Below are positions 42 through 40,310 of a stretch of 64,000 nt of DNA, in pieces. The translations under genes were made by a program, and so were the position numbers. Position 1 is the stretch's first letter. Each line of letters begins with the position of its first letter. Location: NCBI GenBank assembly GCA_963727805.1, contig CAVSHF010000003.1, forward strand, positions 960,001-1,024,000. The letters are read 5' to 3'. Origin of the DNA: an uncultured Nitrospiraceae bacterium (GTDB lineage: Bacteria > Nitrospirota > Thermodesulfovibrionia > Thermodesulfovibrionales > Dissulfurispiraceae). Under the pieces are notes generated by a model. It made no database searches. It was not told where the DNA came from and was given only the letters and a program-made list of their open reading frames with translations.

Positions 42-162
42 TGGAGAGAGGCAGTGGGAATCGGACCCACTCTCGGTTCATTAATATATGGCAAGCGCTC
101 AATTGCCTTGAACCGTGATGCTGGTTTTGCACACCAGATGAGGCACCAGCCCCATGCCCCCC
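42..162 (-). tRNA. non-canonical tRNA-Cys(GCA)-like RNA with tRNA-Sec-like fold and very long variable arm (copy 1)
   Basis: Minus strand: acceptor GGGGGGCA/TGCCTCTC, D-arm GGGGC-TGGT-GCCTC, anticodon arm CTGGT-GT-GCA-AA-ACCAG, ~50 nt extra arm (CGGTTCA/TGAACCG, GGCAA/TTGCC), T-arm GTGGG-TCCGATT-CCCAC, then T-CCA. Confidence 0.8.
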
Positions 163-340
163 GGAAACAGCTCAGAGTAGAGACGGTCATCTCCTATTAC
201 TTCATCCATACGATGGAAACAGTAGCTTATTTGACCAGATATGGTTTCCGAACCGGAATGGCGAAACTGAAGAGTATTCATATTTTCATTCAATTCGCCT
301 TTATTGATACGTCGTGGGTAGTTGTCTCAGAGAGTGTACT
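163..340 (-). ncRNA. conserved structured leader fused 5' of the tRNA-like domain (copy 1)
   Basis: Colinear and highly similar to 34318-34494; stems GAGAC/GTCTC, GGCGAA/TTCGCC, TTCCG/CGGAA, TCCAT/ATGGA. Confidence 0.6.
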
Positions 341-32983: not shown

Positions 32984-34072
32984 CTAGTCCTTCATTGGCT
33001 TGATGAACATGAAGTAGACCATCGTCCAGTTGCCGAGGATTATAAATATGGTCGCCACGATGCTTGATAGGGCGAGGGATGAAACGCCGGTCAACGCATG
33101 ACCTACGGTGCATCCCCCTGCAGTCGCTGCTCCAAAGCCCATAACGAGGCTGCCAAGGAAAACCCGTATGATTTCATTCGCCGGAGGGGCCTGTAATTTG
33201 AATTCGCCGAGTCCTTTGGCGCTAATGTAAGCGCCTAGTGGAATACCCAAAATATATAAAGCACTCCAGGTGCCCTTGAAAATCCCCCAAAAATTAAACA
33301 TAGGATCGAATTTGGACATACTGTCTCCCATCGTCACGGCTAGGAATGCCTCTGCCGTCGGTCCCGCCGCCGAAAGGCCTCGTGTCTGCCCTCCCCAGTA
33401 ATTTGATGCCCAGAGCGCAAAGATAAGGATCACGCCGATCATGGCGCCGGTGAGGGACCATGAATAGCCTTTCCTCGGTCCCTTGGCAAAGGGCTTCCCT
33501 TTCAGGACAATCGGAATGATGATGAGAGCGATAACGCCGATGACTGCCCATTTCATCGATAACCCGCCAAAGATATCCCACAACGCAGGGTTGAAGACGG
33601 CCTCATCGCCGCTGCCAATCGAAACTTTGTAGCTCTTCAGGAATTCCATGACTGGTTTGAGGGGACCATGATAGGTAGCGATAAGAGAAGAGGCAAAACC
33701 GAGAGTGGCCACGAGAGCGGATGTATAGCCTTCTCCCACACGGTATATTATGCCGCTACCGCAACCGCCGGCCATCACAATGCCAAGTCCGAAGACATAG
33801 CCGCCGACCATATTGGCGATAACATTGAAGGATTGCCTCCTGAGACCGAAATCACCCATAAATCCGAAGTCTTCAAGCAGATTCGCGCCAATGATTGCGA
33901 TCAAAAGTGCCAGCAGATATGACCGGAATAAGGTAAAGTCTTCGAGAAATATGATGTCTCTAAAAGCCGAATTCATGCAGTAACGACCTCTCTGAAGAAC
34001 AAAACCGAAAAGAATACCGACAAAGAGCCCACTTGCCAATACCATAAAACTTGCCTGCTGGACTTCCTCCAT
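32984..34072 (-). CDS. yeeE: YeeE/YedE (TsuA-like) sulfur-compound transporter
   Basis: FGFVLQRGRYC; G.VMAGGCGSG; GFGA..AGGCTVG; multi-TM. Confidence 0.9.
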   Translation of the reverse strand: MEEVQQASFMVLASGLFVGILFGFVLQRGRYCMNSAFRDIIFLEDFTLFRSYLLALLIAIIGANLLEDFGFMGDFGLRRQSFNVIANMVGGYVFGLGIVMAGGCGSGIIYRVGEGYTSALVATLGFASSLIATYHGPLKPVMEFLKSYKVSIGSGDEAVFNPALWDIFGGLSMKWAVIGVIALIIIPIVLKGKPFAKGPRKGYSWSLTGAMIGVILIFALWASNYWGGQTRGLSAAGPTAEAFLAVTMGDSMSKFDPMFNFWGIFKGTWSALYILGIPLGAYISAKGLGEFKLQAPPANEIIRVFLGSLVMGFGAATAGGCTVGHALTGVSSLALSSIVATIFIILGNWTMVYFMFIKPMKD

Positions 34073-34187
34073 AGAGCTTCTCCTTTTTCTTCAATTAATC
34101 ATTTGTGTGGCAATGCCACGACTACCGAATTATCTCCTTTCGTCCATATGACGAACGACCAAGCCGACTTTTTCAAAAAAGGAACAA

Positions 34188-34317
34188 TGGAGGGGAGCAG
34201 TGGGAATCGAACCCACCACGGCACCTTATGAGTGCGACACACTGCTTTGACGCCCGTATGTCTTTAGCCGTGACACTGGTTTTGCAGACCAGGTGAGGCG
34301 CCAACCCCGTGCCCCCC
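34188..34317 (-). tRNA. non-canonical tRNA-Cys(GCA)-like RNA with tRNA-Sec-like fold and branched ~59 nt variable arm (copy 2)
   Basis: Acceptor GGGGGGCA/TGCTCCCC; D-arm GGGGT-TGGC-GCCTC; anticodon arm CTGGT-CT-GCA-AA-ACCAG; T-arm GTGGG-TTCGATT-CCCAC; T-CCA. Confidence 0.85.
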
Positions 34318-34494
34318 GGGAACAGCTCACAAAAGAGACGGCTCCCGCCTTTTACGCTATCCGTACAACGGAAACAGCAGGTTATTTGACTTGATATGGG
34401 TTCCGAACTGGAACGGCGAAACTGAAGGGTATTCATATCTTCATTCGGTTCGCCTTTTTTGATACGTCGTGGGAAGTTGTCTCGGAGAGTGTCC
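34318..34494 (-). ncRNA. conserved structured leader fused 5' of the tRNA-like domain (copy 2)
   Basis: GGACA/TGTTC, GAGAC/GTCTC, TTCCC/GGGAG, GGCGAA/TTCGCC, TGAAG/CTTCA, TCCGT/ACGGA; possible GATATG/CATATC pseudoknot. Confidence 0.65.
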
Positions 34495-35279
34495 TATATT
34501 GAAGGCCTATGCCCATGTCTATGATAGCTTGGTGGATCATTTGCAGATAATTTAGTATTGCTTCAATATATATGTCAAATTGTTTTTGTGGATGGCTTAA
34601 ACGGGAGTAATAGATTTGTCGCTACAATCCAAAAACTGGCGGACGCCGAATGGCGGAGAATGCGGGCGTAACATTAAAGTTACCGGTAACCAACGGTGTC
34701 CCTGAAATATCCGATGCGTTGACTTTTTGGTAACATCAAATAAATGTTCCAGCGATGTTCCTATAATCGACAATGCACTCGACACGGTGAAGACGCTTTG
34801 TTTCAATAAGTAATCGAGAGCGGTACTGTTCGTCAATCTTTACCGAGTTCGTCTCCCTGTCATGTTTGTGAGCGTATAGATAAAAGATTCTCTCAGAGGA
34901 AAAGAACGATAGTTGAGATAATATTTTGAAAGTAATTTGCTATAATTAAACGAATAATAAGAGGTTTATGCTCCACTTTAATCTGCTAGCGTGATATCTT
35001 TCATAGCGCCAGAAGAAGACAGGGGTAGCTGTAAATATGTAACGCCTCGAAGCAGGCTAAGTTCAGTCATCTGATAAAAGGGTGCAATTGATCTCTTTTG
35101 GAAAAAACATCTTTGGCCGGAAGTCGTCTCCAACCAAGACATCTACGCTAACTTCGGGCAACTCCCTCCAAAAGTATTTATCTCGCATCACAAAAGATCG
35201 ATCTGTTGCTAACGGTGATATAATCAAGTTTCAGACCTCAAGCAAGACAACAGCGATCGTAAACAGGTGGAGATAGACC

Positions 35280-37592
35280 ATGGCAGAAAGGAATAAGCGC
35301 AAGATGCCAGATGATCATTCATACTTACGCCGGAGAGCCGAGGAGGTGCTGAAAGGGCACGGGGAATTGGACAAAATTCCCGCCGCTCATTTAACGCGCA
35401 TATTTCACGAGTTACAGGTGCATCAGATGGAGCTGGAGATGCAGAATGATGAACTTCGCCGTACGCAGCAGGAACTCGAAACAGCCCGCGAAAAATATTT
35501 TGACCTATATGACCTAGCCCCATCGGGATATGTCTCCCTAAACGAAAAGGGAATAATACTGGAGGCCAATCTAGCGTTCGCAACATTGTTGGGAGTAGAG
35601 AGAAGCAATTTAGTCGGGCAGCCGCTGTTCCGGTTCATATACAGGGAAGATCAGGACTTATATTACCATTGTCATAAACAGCTTGTTGGAACAAATGCGA
35701 ATCAGGCGTGCGTACTGAGAATGGTGAGAAAGAACGGTGCCTCACTTTGGGTGCAAATCGATATCAGCACAGCTCAAGGCATCGACGATACGACGGGGTC
35801 CCGCGCAGTCATAATCGATATCACTGAGCGGAAACAGATAGAGGAGACGCTGAAGAAAAGCGAAAAGCGCTATCACTCGCTCTTTGAAAACATGTCTGAG
35901 GGGTCTGCTTACTGCAAAATGCTTTACGACAATAACGGCAGCCCGACAGATTTTGTCTACCTCGCGGTCAACTCGGCATTCGAATGGCTGACCGGATTGC
36001 ACAATGTAGTGGGTAAGAATGTCACAGAGGTAATCCCAGGGATTAAAGAGTCACATCCGGAGTTATTCGAGATATATAGCCGGGTGGCATTGACTGGTCG
36101 GCCGGAGAAATTTGAGATCGAATTCAAACCTTTGGTGTTATGGTTCTCTATTTCAGTTTATAGCACTGAAAAGAATTACTTCGTAGCTGTTTTTGATGAC
36201 ATTACCGAGCGTAAGCAGGCGGACCGTCGCCAGACACTTTCGGCTCAAATCCGTGGCATTCTGAACGATCCGCCTGCCATTGCTGATGCAATCAGCCGTA
36301 TCATCACCGAAATTAAGAGGGACATGGTCTTTGACGCTGTGGGAATTCGCCTGCATCGCGGTGATGACTTTCCGTATGTTGCTCAGGACGGTTTTTCTAA
36401 AGAATTTCTCATTAAGGAAAATACGCTAGCTGTTCGCAGTCAGAATGGCGGGGTTTGCATGGATAAAGATGGCAACATCAGCTTGGAGTGTACCTGCGGT
36501 CTGGTTATTTCCGGACGGACTGATCCGACAAATCCCGTTTTTACTCCGAGGGGAAGCTTCTGGACCAACGAGTCATTTACATTATTGGATCTCCCGATTG
36601 ACAAGGATCCGAGGCTTCATCCTCGGAACCGCTGCATACTCGAGGGCTTTCATTCCGTGGCTCTCATTCCGCTGAGGGCCGGCAGCCAGATCGTAGGCAT
36701 ACTGCAACTCAACGATCGTAGACCCAACCGATTCACACCTGAGCTAATCTCTTTCTTTGAAGAACTGGCCGCCATTATTGGCATTGCTTTTGCGCGTAAG
36801 CAGGCGGAGGAGGAGATGAAAGAAGCAAGGGAACTGAGCGATGCCTTGAACTTAAAGCTCGAAGAGGCCAATAAAGACCTAGAAGCTTTTAGCTATTTGG
36901 TTTCTCACGATTTGAATGCACCCCTACGTCACATGACAGGCTTTGCGAAACTGCTGCAAAAGCGGATGGAAGAGCAACAGGATGAAAAAAGCCGCCAGTA
37001 TGCACTCTTGATATCCGATGCGTCGACAAAGATGGCGAGGCTTATCGATGACTTGCTTTCCTATTCACGTCTTGGCCGCGAAGAGATGCCAAAGAGGGAA
37101 GTGAACTTAGATCACCTCTTAAAGGAGTCCATCGATGAGATTTCAGAGGAAACGAAGGAGCGGGACATTATGTGGAAGCTTGGTGATCTGCCCACAGTCT
37201 ACGGTGAACAGTCGATGCTGAAGCTTGTGCTCGTCAATTTCATCTCCAACGCGGTCAAATTCACAAGTACTCGACCCAGAGCCGAAATCGAAATTGACTG
37301 CAACAAGGGCGAAAAAGAGGTTATATGTTTTGTTAAAGACAACGGTGCTGGGTTTGATATGAAACACGTGGACAGACTCTTCGGAGTATTCCAACGCCTC
37401 CACACACAGGACGAATTTGAAGGCACTGGCATCGGCCTAGCAAATGTTCGTCGTATCATTTCGTTGCATGGAGGCAGGACATGGGCCGAAAGCTCTGTGG
37501 GTAAAGGAGCTACGTTTTACTTTACACTTCCAATACCGAAAGAGCAAGAATATAATGTGCTCTCCCCAGGGGATCAGGCACCTGAAAGATGA
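35280..37592 (+). CDS. PAS-PAS-GAF sensor histidine kinase
   Basis: ELEMQN.EL; two PAS domains ending DITERK; GAF; FSYLVSHDL.APL; NAVKF; FQRLH; GTGIGL. Confidence 0.92.
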   Translation: MAERNKRKMPDDHSYLRRRAEEVLKGHGELDKIPAAHLTRIFHELQVHQMELEMQNDELRRTQQELETAREKYFDLYDLAPSGYVSLNEKGIILEANLAFATLLGVERSNLVGQPLFRFIYREDQDLYYHCHKQLVGTNANQACVLRMVRKNGASLWVQIDISTAQGIDDTTGSRAVIIDITERKQIEETLKKSEKRYHSLFENMSEGSAYCKMLYDNNGSPTDFVYLAVNSAFEWLTGLHNVVGKNVTEVIPGIKESHPELFEIYSRVALTGRPEKFEIEFKPLVLWFSISVYSTEKNYFVAVFDDITERKQADRRQTLSAQIRGILNDPPAIADAISRIITEIKRDMVFDAVGIRLHRGDDFPYVAQDGFSKEFLIKENTLAVRSQNGGVCMDKDGNISLECTCGLVISGRTDPTNPVFTPRGSFWTNESFTLLDLPIDKDPRLHPRNRCILEGFHSVALIPLRAGSQIVGILQLNDRRPNRFTPELISFFEELAAIIGIAFARKQAEEEMKEARELSDALNLKLEEANKDLEAFSYLVSHDLNAPLRHMTGFAKLLQKRMEEQQDEKSRQYALLISDASTKMARLIDDLLSYSRLGREEMPKREVNLDHLLKESIDEISEETKERDIMWKLGDLPTVYGEQSMLKLVLVNFISNAVKFTSTRPRAEIEIDCNKGEKEVICFVKDNGAGFDMKHVDRLFGVFQRLHTQDEFEGTGIGLANVRRIISLHGGRTWAESSVGKGATFYFTLPIPKEQEYNVLSPGDQAPER

Positions 37593-37735: not shown

Positions 37736-38758
37736 TTACGTGGTGGCGTCAATATTTTCAGGAGAAGAGACTTTCGGCAAATATACTCCCACTTTTGTGC
37801 CGCGGCCCGGTTTGCTGTCTATAAGGATCTTCCCCTTATGCCCCTCAATGATTTTTTTTGCTATAGGCATCCCCAGTCCCGATCCGGAGCTCTTCCTTGT
37901 ATAATACGGAATGAAAATATTTTCCAGTGTCTCCCTGTCCATTCCCGGTCCATTGTCCTCGATTCTAATGAGAAGATGCGACTTCTCGGGCGACATGCTG
38001 ATGCGAACATGCTGCCCTTTGCCCGATGCCTCGATTGCGTTATTGATGAGGTTAGAGAGCGCCCGTTCAACCCGAAAGCCATCAACTTCAGCCATTACAG
38101 ATTGCGAAGGAAGATCAAGTGTAAGTAAGGTGCCGTTTTCGTCAGCCTTCAACTTACAGGCTTCGCAGGATTTGTTAACAATATCCCGGATATCCTGCGC
38201 TTTGATCTCCAGCATTATCGGTTTCGCGAAGTCAAGAACATCAAATACTATCTTTTGCATGACCTCTGCCGATTCCATAATAACCTCGGCGGCGGTATCG
38301 TTATTCTCCTTTTTTTCCATAATGCGTTTGGCAAATCCCATGATAGTAATCAGCGGATTTTTTAGGTCATGCACTATCATCGTCGCTGCCTGCCCCAGAC
38401 CCATAAGATAGCGGTCTCTTTCGGATTGTTTGCGATATCGCCTTTCCCGGTCTATGAATGCGCCGGTAAGGACAGCAAACATGCCTATAAAAAAAAGGGC
38501 CAGAAGTCGTTCGGACAGAAAGGTCCCTGTAAGGTTCAGAAAAACATAGGGGAGATAAAGCACCAAAACAAAAATAAAGGCGCCGATTGCACCCCGTAAC
38601 CCGAAAAATAACGCCCCCAGCAGAACAGGTATATAGTACAGCTCGGCATATATGCCGAGCAAAGCGTGTATTGAAACAACCGTAGAATAGTGCAGATAGC
38701 TTATCAGTATCGTCAATGCGGAAATAACTGCCACAGAATATTTATTTCTATTGCTCAT
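37736..38758 (-). CDS. membrane sensor histidine kinase
   Basis: TM region; HDLKNPL; NAIEA; DNGPG; GSGLG. Confidence 0.92.
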   Translation of the reverse strand: MSNRNKYSVAVISALTILISYLHYSTVVSIHALLGIYAELYYIPVLLGALFFGLRGAIGAFIFVLVLYLPYVFLNLTGTFLSERLLALFFIGMFAVLTGAFIDRERRYRKQSERDRYLMGLGQAATMIVHDLKNPLITIMGFAKRIMEKKENNDTAAEVIMESAEVMQKIVFDVLDFAKPIMLEIKAQDIRDIVNKSCEACKLKADENGTLLTLDLPSQSVMAEVDGFRVERALSNLINNAIEASGKGQHVRISMSPEKSHLLIRIEDNGPGMDRETLENIFIPYYTRKSSGSGLGMPIAKKIIEGHKGKILIDSKPGRGTKVGVYLPKVSSPENIDATT

Positions 38759-38906: not shown

Positions 38907-40310
38907 TCAATGTCTTATGTTAGAAAGAGGTACAATTACTCTTACTGTAGTGCCTCTACCCTTGTCACTGGCAATCTCCACTTTCCCTCTCCAAGGATAA
39001 ACACGTTCACGCATTCCTATCAGACCGAAGGATTGAGGCTTTGATAGTTGTCCGTCTGTTATACCTTCGCCATTATCCATGACTTCCAGTGTCACTTGAT
39101 GGTCATCATCCTTTATTAGTCTTGCTGTCACCTTTGTCGCCTTTGCATGTTTGAGGACGTTTGTCAATGCTTCCTGGAATATTCTAAAAAACGCAATACC
39201 CCGTTCTTTGTCTAAATAGATATCAGAAGGTTCTTCGATAACAGTGCATTCAATTCCTGTTCGTTCCTGAAATTCATACGCCTGCCATTCCATCGCAGCC
39301 ACAAGGCCGAAATCATCCAATAGCGATGGTCTCAACTCAGTACAGATACGCTTGACCGACAGGATCGTCGCATTAAGTCCGTCCAGCATTGCACCGACCT
39401 TGTCGAAAAGCGGTTTGTGGTCTGCGTATTTGTTATGTAACCAGCTTAAATCCATCTTCATAGCCGTTAGCGTCTGACCAAGTTCATCGTGTATATCACG
39501 TGCAATGGTTCTTCTGTCATCTTCCCTGATGGTTTGCAAATGGGCGGCAAGATTACGTAATCGATCATGTGCCGTTTCTAGTTCTGCGGTTCGTTCCATA
39601 ACTTGCAACTCTAATTCCTCATGCGATCTCTTGAGAGCTTCTTCCATCTTCTTACGCTCGGTGATATCTGTGCCAATGCTCAACACTTCGACCAGGACTC
39701 CCCCAGAGTCAAACACCGCCCTATTGGTCCAGGAGATCCAGACCCGGCGGCCGTCATGGAGCATGTTCTCAATAACGTTCCCCTCGAATGCTGCAGGGTT
39801 CCTGCAAATGATTTCCATGAGCGGGCGGAAATCCTGGCCACTGCTTTCGGTTTCTGGCGTAACGGTACCGATCACGTTACGCCCGAGGATTTCGTCCTCC
39901 CGATACCCAAAGAACTTGCACCCGAACTCGTTTAGGAAGGTAATTTCACCGTCTGATTTCCAGCGCAGGATTATGCTGTTGGCGTTTTCGACTAGCTCGC
40001 GGTATTTAAATTCGCTTTCCCGCAGCGCAGCCTCGACTCGCTTGCGCTCGGCGATCTCTTTTTGCAATATCTGTTTTTCGAGTCCTATCTTTGCCGAGTA
40101 TCTAATGATAGGCAAGAGAATAAAAGTAACAATCAGAGACACAAAGATAGCGTCAATGGCACCGATCTCGGCAAGTTCACCTGAAATCATGCCCCCCCGC
40201 AAGATACTCTGAATTAAAGTAAGAACGAAGGTGAAGATTTCCGCAATAAGTACCGCAAATAGAAAAAAATGCCACGTTTTTATGCGTTCTAATGTTCGGA
40301 ATATATCCAT
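38907..40310 (-). CDS. PAS sensor histidine kinase (HisKA_3/NarX type)
   Basis: IARDIHDELGQ.L; LRPS.LDD.GL; QEALTNV.KHA; DNG.G; GLIGMRER. Confidence 0.92.
   Translation of the reverse strand: MDIFRTLERIKTWHFFLFAVLIAEIFTFVLTLIQSILRGGMISGELAEIGAIDAIFVSLIVTFILLPIIRYSAKIGLEKQILQKEIAERKRVEAALRESEFKYRELVENANSIILRWKSDGEITFLNEFGCKFFGYREDEILGRNVIGTVTPETESSGQDFRPLMEIICRNPAAFEGNVIENMLHDGRRVWISWTNRAVFDSGGVLVEVLSIGTDITERKKMEEALKRSHEELELQVMERTAELETAHDRLRNLAAHLQTIREDDRRTIARDIHDELGQTLTAMKMDLSWLHNKYADHKPLFDKVGAMLDGLNATILSVKRICTELRPSLLDDFGLVAAMEWQAYEFQERTGIECTVIEEPSDIYLDKERGIAFFRIFQEALTNVLKHAKATKVTARLIKDDDHQVTLEVMDNGEGITDGQLSKPQSFGLIGMRERVYPWRGKVEIASDKGRGTTVRVIVPLSNIRH

Follow-up and report, generated by a model that had tools for sequence, protein, structure and literature searches.

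Introduction

An element resembling the selenocysteine insertion sequence (SECIS) was reportedly described in the 5' untranslated region (UTR) of the Escherichia coli selAB mRNA by Thanbichler and Bock in 2002. In the present study we have analysed a window of 64,000 nt from an uncultured Nitrospiraceae bacterium of the family Dissulfurispiraceae (GenBank assembly GCA_963727805.1, contig CAVSHF010000003.1, positions 960,001 to 1,024,000), and in it a region of 177 nt at 34318..34494 (copy B) which lies directly 5' of a selC*-type tRNA-Cys gene and has a paralogue of the same length at 163..339 (copy A). Numbering is by window position, and all features lie on the minus strand unless stated otherwise. 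The region belongs to a leader that is real and undescribed: a young, genus-restricted module of start codon and hairpin placed in front of a tRNA that is odd but known.

The leader shares with the E. coli selAB element (PMC13449736) a short hairpin with a GU-containing apical loop near a translation start in a selenium-related leader, and binding of SelB may be proposed here as well; unlike in E. coli, the hairpin is found inside an upstream open reading frame (ORF), 24 nt after a UGA, and before a tRNA and yedE or hydrogenase genes. For mycobacteria there is a model, itself a hypothesis, in which selC and selAB form a co-transcript and the folding and processing of the tRNA compete with ribosome loading (PMC13449736). 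That model likewise joins a tRNA-Sec-type gene to a protein gene, there only 8-120 nt away, but it includes neither a long leader nor an ORF through the tRNA. As far as the available parts of the sources show, the corA and mgtA leaders (PMC5314796) and the Mycobacterium tuberculosis Mbox with its small upstream ORF (PMC12810186) are similar in having a long leader and a short conserved start module, with translation of the upstream ORF deciding the fate of the message through Rho-dependent termination or through downstream translation; in the present case, however, the upstream ORF runs through the tRNA gene, and a role of Rho is purely inferred. Attenuators of the trp and his type and, in the accessible part of their description, the polycysteine short ORFs of mycobacteria (10.1101/834739) also place a leader ORF with Cys codons before sulfur-related genes, whereas here no terminator or antiterminator is conserved, the Cys codons are not conserved and the ORF has 60-124 codons instead of about 15. 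For a tRNA gene lying within a coding gene there is a single prediction, that of selC inside selB, according to the available part of PMC8124441.

The selC* class of tRNAs was described by Mukai et al. in 2017 (PMC5389517), whose paper, in the part available, defines it by a tRNA-Sec-like shape, U73 and a GCA or UCA anticodon and reports it from Nitrospirae. That study covers the tRNA only: the words "leader", "yedE" and "precursor" do not occur in its main text, nor "yedE", "hydrogenase" and "upstream" in its supplement, a comparison of text which leaves aside Figures S8-S13, where gene neighbourhoods may be displayed. In the literature on selC* or tRNA-Cys leaders, yedE, Nitrospirota, SECIS-like elements and Dissulfurispira, with subscription journals mostly outside the coverage, no description of the leader or of the linkage between this tRNA and yedE was found.

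A conserved core of start codons and hairpins

Relatives were collected by BLAST of a 491-nt query against 68 Dissulfurispiraceae genomes, 35 of which matched some part of it. The tRNA part was matched across many genera, and the leader part only in the window's own genus (G021, G022, G024, G025 and G027), together with a single 34-nt match in G056 (E 7.5e-4). Two pattern scans of genome and metagenome collections added further leaders; because the scan pattern required both the ATGA and the sequence of the hairpin here called P2, the invariance of these two counts only for the eight leaders found by BLAST, where ATGA is present in 8/8 and P2 is intact in 7/8. Among the 19 loci, L045 is a false positive and several are duplicates. 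The distinct tRNA-linked leaders are 12 in number (L001, which is copy B, L002, which is copy A, L003, L004, L006, L007, L014, L038, L042, L044, L048 and L050); L005 is a decayed copy, its P2 having lost 4 nt and its tRNA being degenerate, and the L033 group consists of leaders without a tRNA. A covariance model of an 88-nt core, run on the genome under study (G000) and on 150 other genomes of the order, returned the two copies of the window and one marginal hit (G142, E 0.008). The whole leader of copy B would extend over 34318..34542, about 225 nt, and is specific to the genus; in eight sequences its length is 213-250 nt, and the other genera have no such leader.

Conservation is concentrated in the 88-nt core, with a mean column identity of 83%, versus a pairwise difference of about 40-50% further 3'. 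The first part of the core is hairpin P1 (34415..34454 in copy B, 260-299 in copy A; arms GGCGAACC and GTTTCGCC), which is paired in 90.6% of cells without any double change, L007 breaking 2 of its 6 pairs. Its 5' arm carries the only Shine-Dalgarno-like sequence, AAAGG, and its loop carries two ATGs. The first of these opens a mini-ORF of three codons, ATG AAG ATA TGA (34433..34444), whose TGA overlaps the second, main ATG (34436-34434; 279-281 in copy A) in the form of ATGA. The arrangement (A/G)TG-N6-TGA is present in 11/12 distinct leaders and lacking in L004. Directly 3' of P1 follows hairpin P2, GTTCC-AGTTC-GGAAC (34400..34414; 245-259 in copy A), paired in 95% of cells, with an invariant G and U in the loop and a SECIS-like apex. 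Downstream, 52 nt after the ATG, a TAA triplet in the frame of the mini-ORF (34382..34384) corresponds to TAA or TAG at position 52 in 11/11 sequences, among variable flanks, and the rows including L004 agree. The two AUG-containing segments are each complementary to the P2 region, and such pairings exclude P1 and P2.

The distance between the main ATG and G1 of the tRNA is 119 nt in 11 of the 12 distinct leaders and 139 nt in L004, while the part 5' of the ATG varies in length. This module of start codon and hairpin is a concrete and mutable handle on the role of the selC* tRNA and on the control of yedE and Cys-isoform expression.

The frame opened by the conserved start codon

The frame that begins at the conserved ATG (frame 0) has no stop before the tRNA in 12/12 leaders, whereas frames 1 and 2 contain 2-4 stops each, except frame 2 of L004, which has none. 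The stop triplets occupy 14 distinct positions, all of them outside frame 0, for which a naive calculation gives (2/3)^14 = 0.003. In copy B the open frame (34173..34436) has 87 codons and crosses the whole tRNA, ending 100 nt before the next gene; in copy A (99..281) it has 60 codons and ends inside the variable arm of the tRNA, 159 nt before the next gene. The frames of the relatives come closer to the following gene: they end 24 nt before it in L003 (112 codons), 12 nt before it in L004 (121 codons), 61 nt before it in L014 (121 codons) and 8 nt past its start in L042 (124 codons), with the ORF end and the conserved Met position of L048 as in L042. In L038 (103 codons) and L044 (122 codons) the next gene is beyond the sequence in view. 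Dinucleotide shuffles give P = 0.003-0.02 for the six long frames.

The analysis of individual lineages indicates what is being kept. In L004 the frame stays open even though an insertion of 20 nt changes the register in which the tRNA is crossed, in L014 it traverses a decayed tRNA without a stop and precedes a different downstream gene, and the peptides of different lineages differ completely wherever insertions or deletions change the frame. Thus, selection appears to act on the openness of the frame rather than on the peptide. A conserved start with a frame kept open whatever the peptide is the pattern of a regulatory upstream ORF, and it is found here with the exceptions of L005 and L040.

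Several observations weigh against the translation of this frame. In the two exceptions it closes early, at codon 14 in L005, with its 4-nt deletion and decayed tRNA, and at codon 34 in L040, which has no tRNA. Frame 1 has only 4 stop positions and is likewise sparse in stops. The shuffle P values are 0.04 and 0.07 for the copies of the window, whose frames are the shortest and stop 100 and 159 nt short of the next gene, and the P values as a whole are not independent because the lineages are related. There is no codon periodicity, the pairwise differences being 0.30, 0.37 and 0.35 at codon positions 1, 2 and 3; the ratio pN/pS is 0.77 in frame 0 versus 0.99 and 0.73 in the other frames, and within the core it is 0.92, 1.14 and 0.56 across the frames, frame 0 first. 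The sole Shine-Dalgarno-like element stands 17-18 nt upstream of the main ATG, a position that suits the mini-ORF better, and has no companion at normal spacing. Public protein sets hold eight such ORFs, a biased sample because only called ORFs are stored there. Finally, an ORF that reads through a tRNA gene is odd in itself, and we know of no other case. Should the long frame be translated, a tRNA gene can serve at the same time as a piece of regulatory coding sequence.

No Pfam domain is on record for any of the eight public ORFs, and a Pfam search with three ORFs gave no significant family, with one hit at E 0.11. The possibility that substitutions in frame 1 are mostly synonymous was ruled out by count, the ratio in that frame being 1.14. 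ORFs of the opposite strand, checked as reverse frames, are not conserved.

Transcription and the proposed mechanism

A promoter-like site of the form TTGACA-18 nt-TAAATT (34549..34578) was located upstream of copy B by a consensus scan with 10/12 matches, and transcription would start from it near 34542. The site aligns with a box, TCTATTT(G/T)AC...CTATATTA, which is found upstream of the tRNA in all genera of the family together with further CTAT-type boxes. In genera g6 and g7 only about 10-25 nt separate the end of this box from the tRNA, versus 213-250 nt in the genus of the window, and no promoter-like site is conserved next to the tRNA. The leader thus represents an insertion that separates the tRNA from a conserved promoter, and joint transcription is the simplest assumption; we consider that leader and tRNA are very probably transcribed together. 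In the other genera the gap between tRNA and yedE leaves no room for a separate promoter.

The family-wide promoter region (34549-34640 and 372-470, and upstream of L003-L030) contains ATCTAT three times with CCTATAG upstream, and an inverted ATAGG(T/C) box stands just 3' of the presumed transcription start. These CTAT and ATAGG boxes look like operators for a regulator; when the genome was searched for the promoter boxes with regular expressions, no further informative sites emerged.

The conservation, the two hairpins, the conserved ATG, the open frame, the fixed spacing and length and the gene order are properties of the locus as observed. From them we infer transcription from the upstream promoter, translation and every regulatory consequence, and the reading that we favour, tentatively and without regarding it as probable, is that the region is the central and 3' part of a transcribed and translated regulatory leader. 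In this proposal one genus of Dissulfurispiraceae would have gained a leader of about 225 nt between the family-wide promoter and the selC*-type tRNA-Cys gene. The working part would be the core of about 80 nt, in which P1 would sequester the weak Shine-Dalgarno-like AAAGG and present the mini-ORF and the overlapping ATG in its loop. Ribosomes loading at that ATG would translate an upstream ORF, independent of its sequence, through leader and tRNA, and in most lineages translation would reach the start codon of the next gene. Such translation would keep the transcript as an mRNA, with the tRNA unfolded, Rho without access and ribosomes delivered to the yedE or hydrogenase genes; in an untranslated transcript, the tRNA domain would fold and be excised. 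The frequency of ribosome loading might be set by P1, P2 and the alternative pairings with the two AUG segments.

Resemblance to SECIS elements and the selenium context

A more specific form of the translated-leader proposal, which we consider unlikely, is that P2 is SECIS-like and that SelB senses selenium through it. With selenium plentiful, the complex SelB-GTP-Sec-tRNA(Sec) on P2 would block ribosomes at the start of the leader ORF or would recode the UGA of the mini-ORF, and the recoded ribosomes would continue in frame 1 to the conserved UAR, skipping the overlapping AUG. With selenium scarce, the long frame would be translated and yedE and the Cys-type hydrogenase expressed.

The geometry of P2 speaks for this possibility. 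Counted from the U of UGA in AUGA, its loop AGUUC occupies positions 27-31, with G28 and U29, and the 5-nt loop (CGUGA) of the SECIS of the NiFeSe hydrogenase large subunit of the same genome also lies at 27-31. The apices of two further SECIS elements of this genome, CCA-GUC-UGG in Fdh1 and CC-GUC-GG in SelD2, resemble the P2 apex CC-(A/G)GU(U/C)(C/U)-GG, and in L006 all 9 nt of the P2 apex agree with Fdh1. Among the leaders the loop is AGUUC, GGUUC, AGUCU or GGUCC, its G and U being invariant, as the scan pattern partly required in the metagenome hits; the position that closes it is A/C in six sequences, G/C in five and A/U in one. The bSECISearch program reportedly expects the apical loop about 16-37 nt downstream of the UGA. 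In the available part of PMC13582414 the bacterial SECIS consensus has G at loop position 1 or 2, and the UGA of ATGA together with P2 has the spacing as well as the loop G of a bacterial SECIS. Against this, P2 has only 5-6 pairs (-6 kcal/mol), compared with the 6-8 G+C-rich pairs of real SECIS elements, an NGUNN loop is common by chance, and the P2 sequence was itself demanded by the pattern in the metagenome hits.

The mini-ORF frame and the gene content point in the same direction as the loop. Only two stops are universal in frame 1, the UGA and the TAA/TAG at +52; L004, however, lacks the start codon of the mini-ORF. In addition to an ordinary tRNA-Cys(GCA), the genome possesses tRNA-Sec(UCA), selB and two selD genes with an in-frame TGA, as well as a Sec-type paralogue, with one in-frame TGA in the large-subunit gene elsewhere in the genome, of the Cys-type hydrogenase downstream of copy A. 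A precedent would be the selAB leader of E. coli with its SECIS-like element (PMC13449736). According to the accessible part of PMC11097638, depletion of selenium raises the yedE transcript of Methanococcus maripaludis by 5.3 log2 and induces Cys isoforms of selenoenzymes as well, and YedE family proteins are suspected selenium transporters. On the other hand, YedE-family proteins also serve sulfur uptake, and other genera have the tRNA-yedE unit without P2. The genomic context fits a selenium response, and YedE/YeeE with the neighbouring rhodaneses fits sulfur uptake just as well.

Taken to its full extent, which makes it decidedly doubtful, the proposal would turn the leader into a selenium gauge built of translation parts, namely the UGA/AUG overlap and the SECIS-like P2, with SelB recoding or acting as a roadblock when selenium is present. 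In that state the long ORF would go unread, the tRNA would fold and be released, and yedE and the Cys-type hydrogenase would be low; without selenium, ribosomes would stop at the UGA, restart at the AUG, cross the tRNA and switch on the selenium-starvation genes. Were it true, the leader would rank as the first selenium sensor to act in cis in bacteria, and its ORF as the first known to traverse a tRNA gene for the sake of regulation; the matter bears on the question of how selenium is perceived by bacteria and how they change over between enzymes with selenocysteine and their cysteine counterparts.

The leader as a possible DNA-level or processing element

The core could also be a DNA-level or processing element, or a relic, without any sensing role, the open frame then being a side effect of composition; it might be retained as the operator at which the factor of the CTAT/ATAGG boxes binds, as an RNase site, or as a by-product in the form of a small, stable RNA. 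Both P1 and P2 are palindromic as DNA too, a coding signature is missing, boxes of the CCTAT/ATAGG type occur both 5' of the promoter and at the start of the leader, with CATAGG four times in copy A, and the tRNA is decaying in several lineages while the leader persists. We nevertheless hold this explanation to be improbable, as the core is situated about 90-170 nt downstream of the presumed transcription start, which is unusual for an operator, and the open frame extends through unrelated sequence in L014 and in a shifted frame in L004.

Secondary structure of the leader

An earlier note on this DNA had described the region as a conserved multi-stem RNA of about 180 nt, joined to the tRNA in a composite RNA of about 300 nt in which a sensor or protein-binding domain would control the folding or release of the tRNA. 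All the helices that it named can be drawn in both copies, with one named pair broken in copy A (81/95, A-A), but the minimum free energy (MFE) z-scores of the two copies, -1.51 and -0.90, are unremarkable. Its double compensatory change is real in so far as pair 126/132 (in the numbering of the 177 nt) is G-C in copy B versus A-U in copy A; one transition-transition double among 31 differences is, by an estimate that is not a formal test, about what chance would give.

The helices were then counted in the 11 leaders that are gapless between ATG and tRNA, leaving out L004, L005, the L033 group, the duplicates and L045; slid controls pair in 34-41% of cells. The internal hairpins hold up well, GGCGAA/TTCGCC of P1 being paired in 93.9% and GTTCC/GGAAC of P2 in 94.5% of cells. 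The long-range closing helix does not, with its outer part paired in 54.5% and its inner part in 34.5%; the TCCGT/ACGGA hairpin is lost in a similar manner (52.7%), and so is the pseudoknot between ATATG and CATAT (67.3%), so that 4/6 of the proposed helices are paired in only 34.5-67.3% of cells. In agreement with this, RNAalifold kept only P1 and P2 for eight leaders, with a covariation term of +0.14 kcal/mol. When P1 is lengthened to 8 pairs and taken together with P2, 92.3% of cells in the 12-sequence core are paired and double changes are absent; the pairs of P1 and P2 are too conserved for a test of covariation. A scan of three alignments for conserved helices found 9, versus a mean of 4.5 and a maximum of 11 after column shuffling, and no long-range helix above background. 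An alternative closing helix (columns 9-14 with 164-169) was rejected, each of its pairs being formed in only 45-91% of the sequences.

The domain of about 180 nt is therefore not supported, as most of its helices are lost in relatives and the two that are kept show no covariation: it is a feature of the two paralogues of this genome and not of the element, whose conserved part is the core of about 80 nt with two hairpins around a start codon. The note recognised no known riboswitch or T-box, and at the gathering threshold of Rfam 15 the whole window yields two ordinary tRNAs only. At E up to 10, Rfam returned for 34100-34750 tRNA-Sec on the tRNA domain and a chance plastid hit, with no family for the leader, and for the relatives tRNA-Sec only. 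A T-box was rejected as a candidate: Rfam gives no T-box match, no terminator is conserved, and the element precedes a tRNA and not a synthetase gene. Even if the long frame is untranslated, the result corrects an attractive but unsupported reading of the region as a new riboswitch.

What might survive of that proposal is a structured RNA that binds a ligand or protein and governs the folding of the tRNA or its release by RNase P with no part for translation. The pairing of P1 and P2 in 92% of cells, the lack of any Rfam family for the core and the strictly constant distance from core to tRNA are in keeping with it, and C/U-rich segments of the leader could pair with the G-rich 5' acceptor strand. 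The paralogues differ at 4/64 paired versus 27/113 unpaired positions, although this low count at paired positions is biased, the fold having been drawn from the same two sequences. No pair is changed on both sides, no covariation energy is gained, the MFE z-scores are weak, the long-range helices are not conserved (9 versus a shuffle mean of 4.5 and up to 11), the element is confined to one genus and P1 is partly broken in L007, all of which makes a sensor of this kind quite improbable.

A leader-peptide attenuator that reads cysteine supply through tandem Cys codons is very unlikely: codons 20-21 are Cys-Cys in 5/12 distinct leaders and codon 21 is Cys in 9/12, the genes that follow are involved in the uptake of sulfur or selenium, the tRNA next to the leader decodes Cys codons and the mycobacterial polycysteine short ORFs (10.1101/834739, as far as available) offer a precedent, but L006 and L007 lack these Cys codons, the frequency is by estimate near random for the composition, no alternative terminator and antiterminator helices were found conserved, and no terminator is conserved either, the one terminator-like site in copy B, with none on the same strand in copy A, comparing with about 0.9 expected by chance.

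The adjacent tRNA

The leader abuts the tRNA as the earlier note had it, position 34318 being the base before G1, and the same holds for copy A. The tRNA-like domain of copy B (34192..34317) has a GCA anticodon, U73 and a variable arm of about 55 nt and scores 46.1 bits with Rfam tRNA-Sec (RF01852); that of copy A (46..162), with the hydrogenase operon downstream, scores 44.7 bits, both just below the gathering score of 47. ARAGORN did not report the tRNA-like domain of copy B. A tRNA-Sec-like cloverleaf, a long variable arm (about 45-55 nt), U73, a GCA anticodon (GCA or UCA being allowed) and, in addition, a G-rich acceptor stem place the domain among the selC* tRNA-Cys. Compared with the accessible part of PMC5389517, the anticodon arm and T arm are closely like the Thermodesulfovibrio entries of the supplementary table ("Nitrospirae type"), while the variable arm is far longer than in the tRNAs of Mukai et al. 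The tRNA domain is thus not new but a selC*-type tRNA-Cys of known class, and the leader is a separate element without a family.

At 16 loci in at least four genera, a selC*-type tRNA-Cys(GCA) comes first and a YedE-family gene of 362 aa follows it, with gaps of 8-283 nt; the gap is mostly 8-40 nt in the other genera versus about 110-120 nt in the genus of the window. The length of the variable arm ranges between genera from about 12 to about 55 nt (L008-L030).

The tRNA behind the leader has decayed in L014 (G027) and L005 (G021), has lost its anticodon arm in L038/L049 and is replaced by other sequence in L033. The leader core is retained in all of these despite the loss of the tRNA, although in L005 with the 4-nt deletion in P2, which suggests that the leader can outlive the tRNA. 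In two other genera (L016 and L024) a different leader of about 60 nt with a GGGGA...TCCCC hairpin, about 60-80 nt 5' of the tRNA, stands between promoter box and tRNA; this would be a second, independent insertion at the same spot.

Genomic setting of the two copies

The two copies (34494..34318 and 339..163) align without gaps, as had been noted, over 177 nt each, with 31 differences, 19 of them transitions, and 82.5% identity; the true span of copy A is 163-339 and not 163-340. They are part of a paralogous repeat of about 420-490 nt (78% identity over 422 nt, E 4e-97), of which the genome contains exactly two copies. At the 5' end of the copy A leader (351-374), there are four tandem units of the hexamer CCTATG, which reads CATAGG on the RNA strand, versus one or two degenerate units in copy B and the relatives.

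Downstream of copy B, 119 nt 3' of the tRNA, lies a gene of the YedE/YeeE family (32984..34072; Sulf_transp, PF04143, E 9.8e-66). About 35-40 nt before the yedE start, between the tRNA and its Shine-Dalgarno sequence, there is a conserved hairpin, GTGGCATTGCCAC (34107-34119), which is seen in every genus lineage with the spacer in view and in the same place in L003, L004, L042 and L048. The tRNA of copy A is followed, outside the window, by genes for both subunits, small and large, of a [NiFe] hydrogenase, for a cytochrome b and for a maturation protease; the large subunit has the C-terminal Cys-type motif DPCMACAIH. In the Sec-type [NiFeSe] large subunit (G000:C3:1352725-1354278, outside the window), the Sec is found in the N-terminal motif RICGVU, of the CxxU type, and not in the usual C-terminal DPUxxC; the available part of PMC13582414 reports only two Group 1 sequences with Sec of the N-terminal type.

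Just 5' of copy A there are two genes with rhodanese domains (776-1579 and 1925-2479), and just 5' of copy B three PAS/GAF histidine kinase genes (35280-37592 on the plus strand, 37736-38758 and 38907-40310 on the minus strand). These neighbours are possible partners in sulfur or selenium handling and in signalling.

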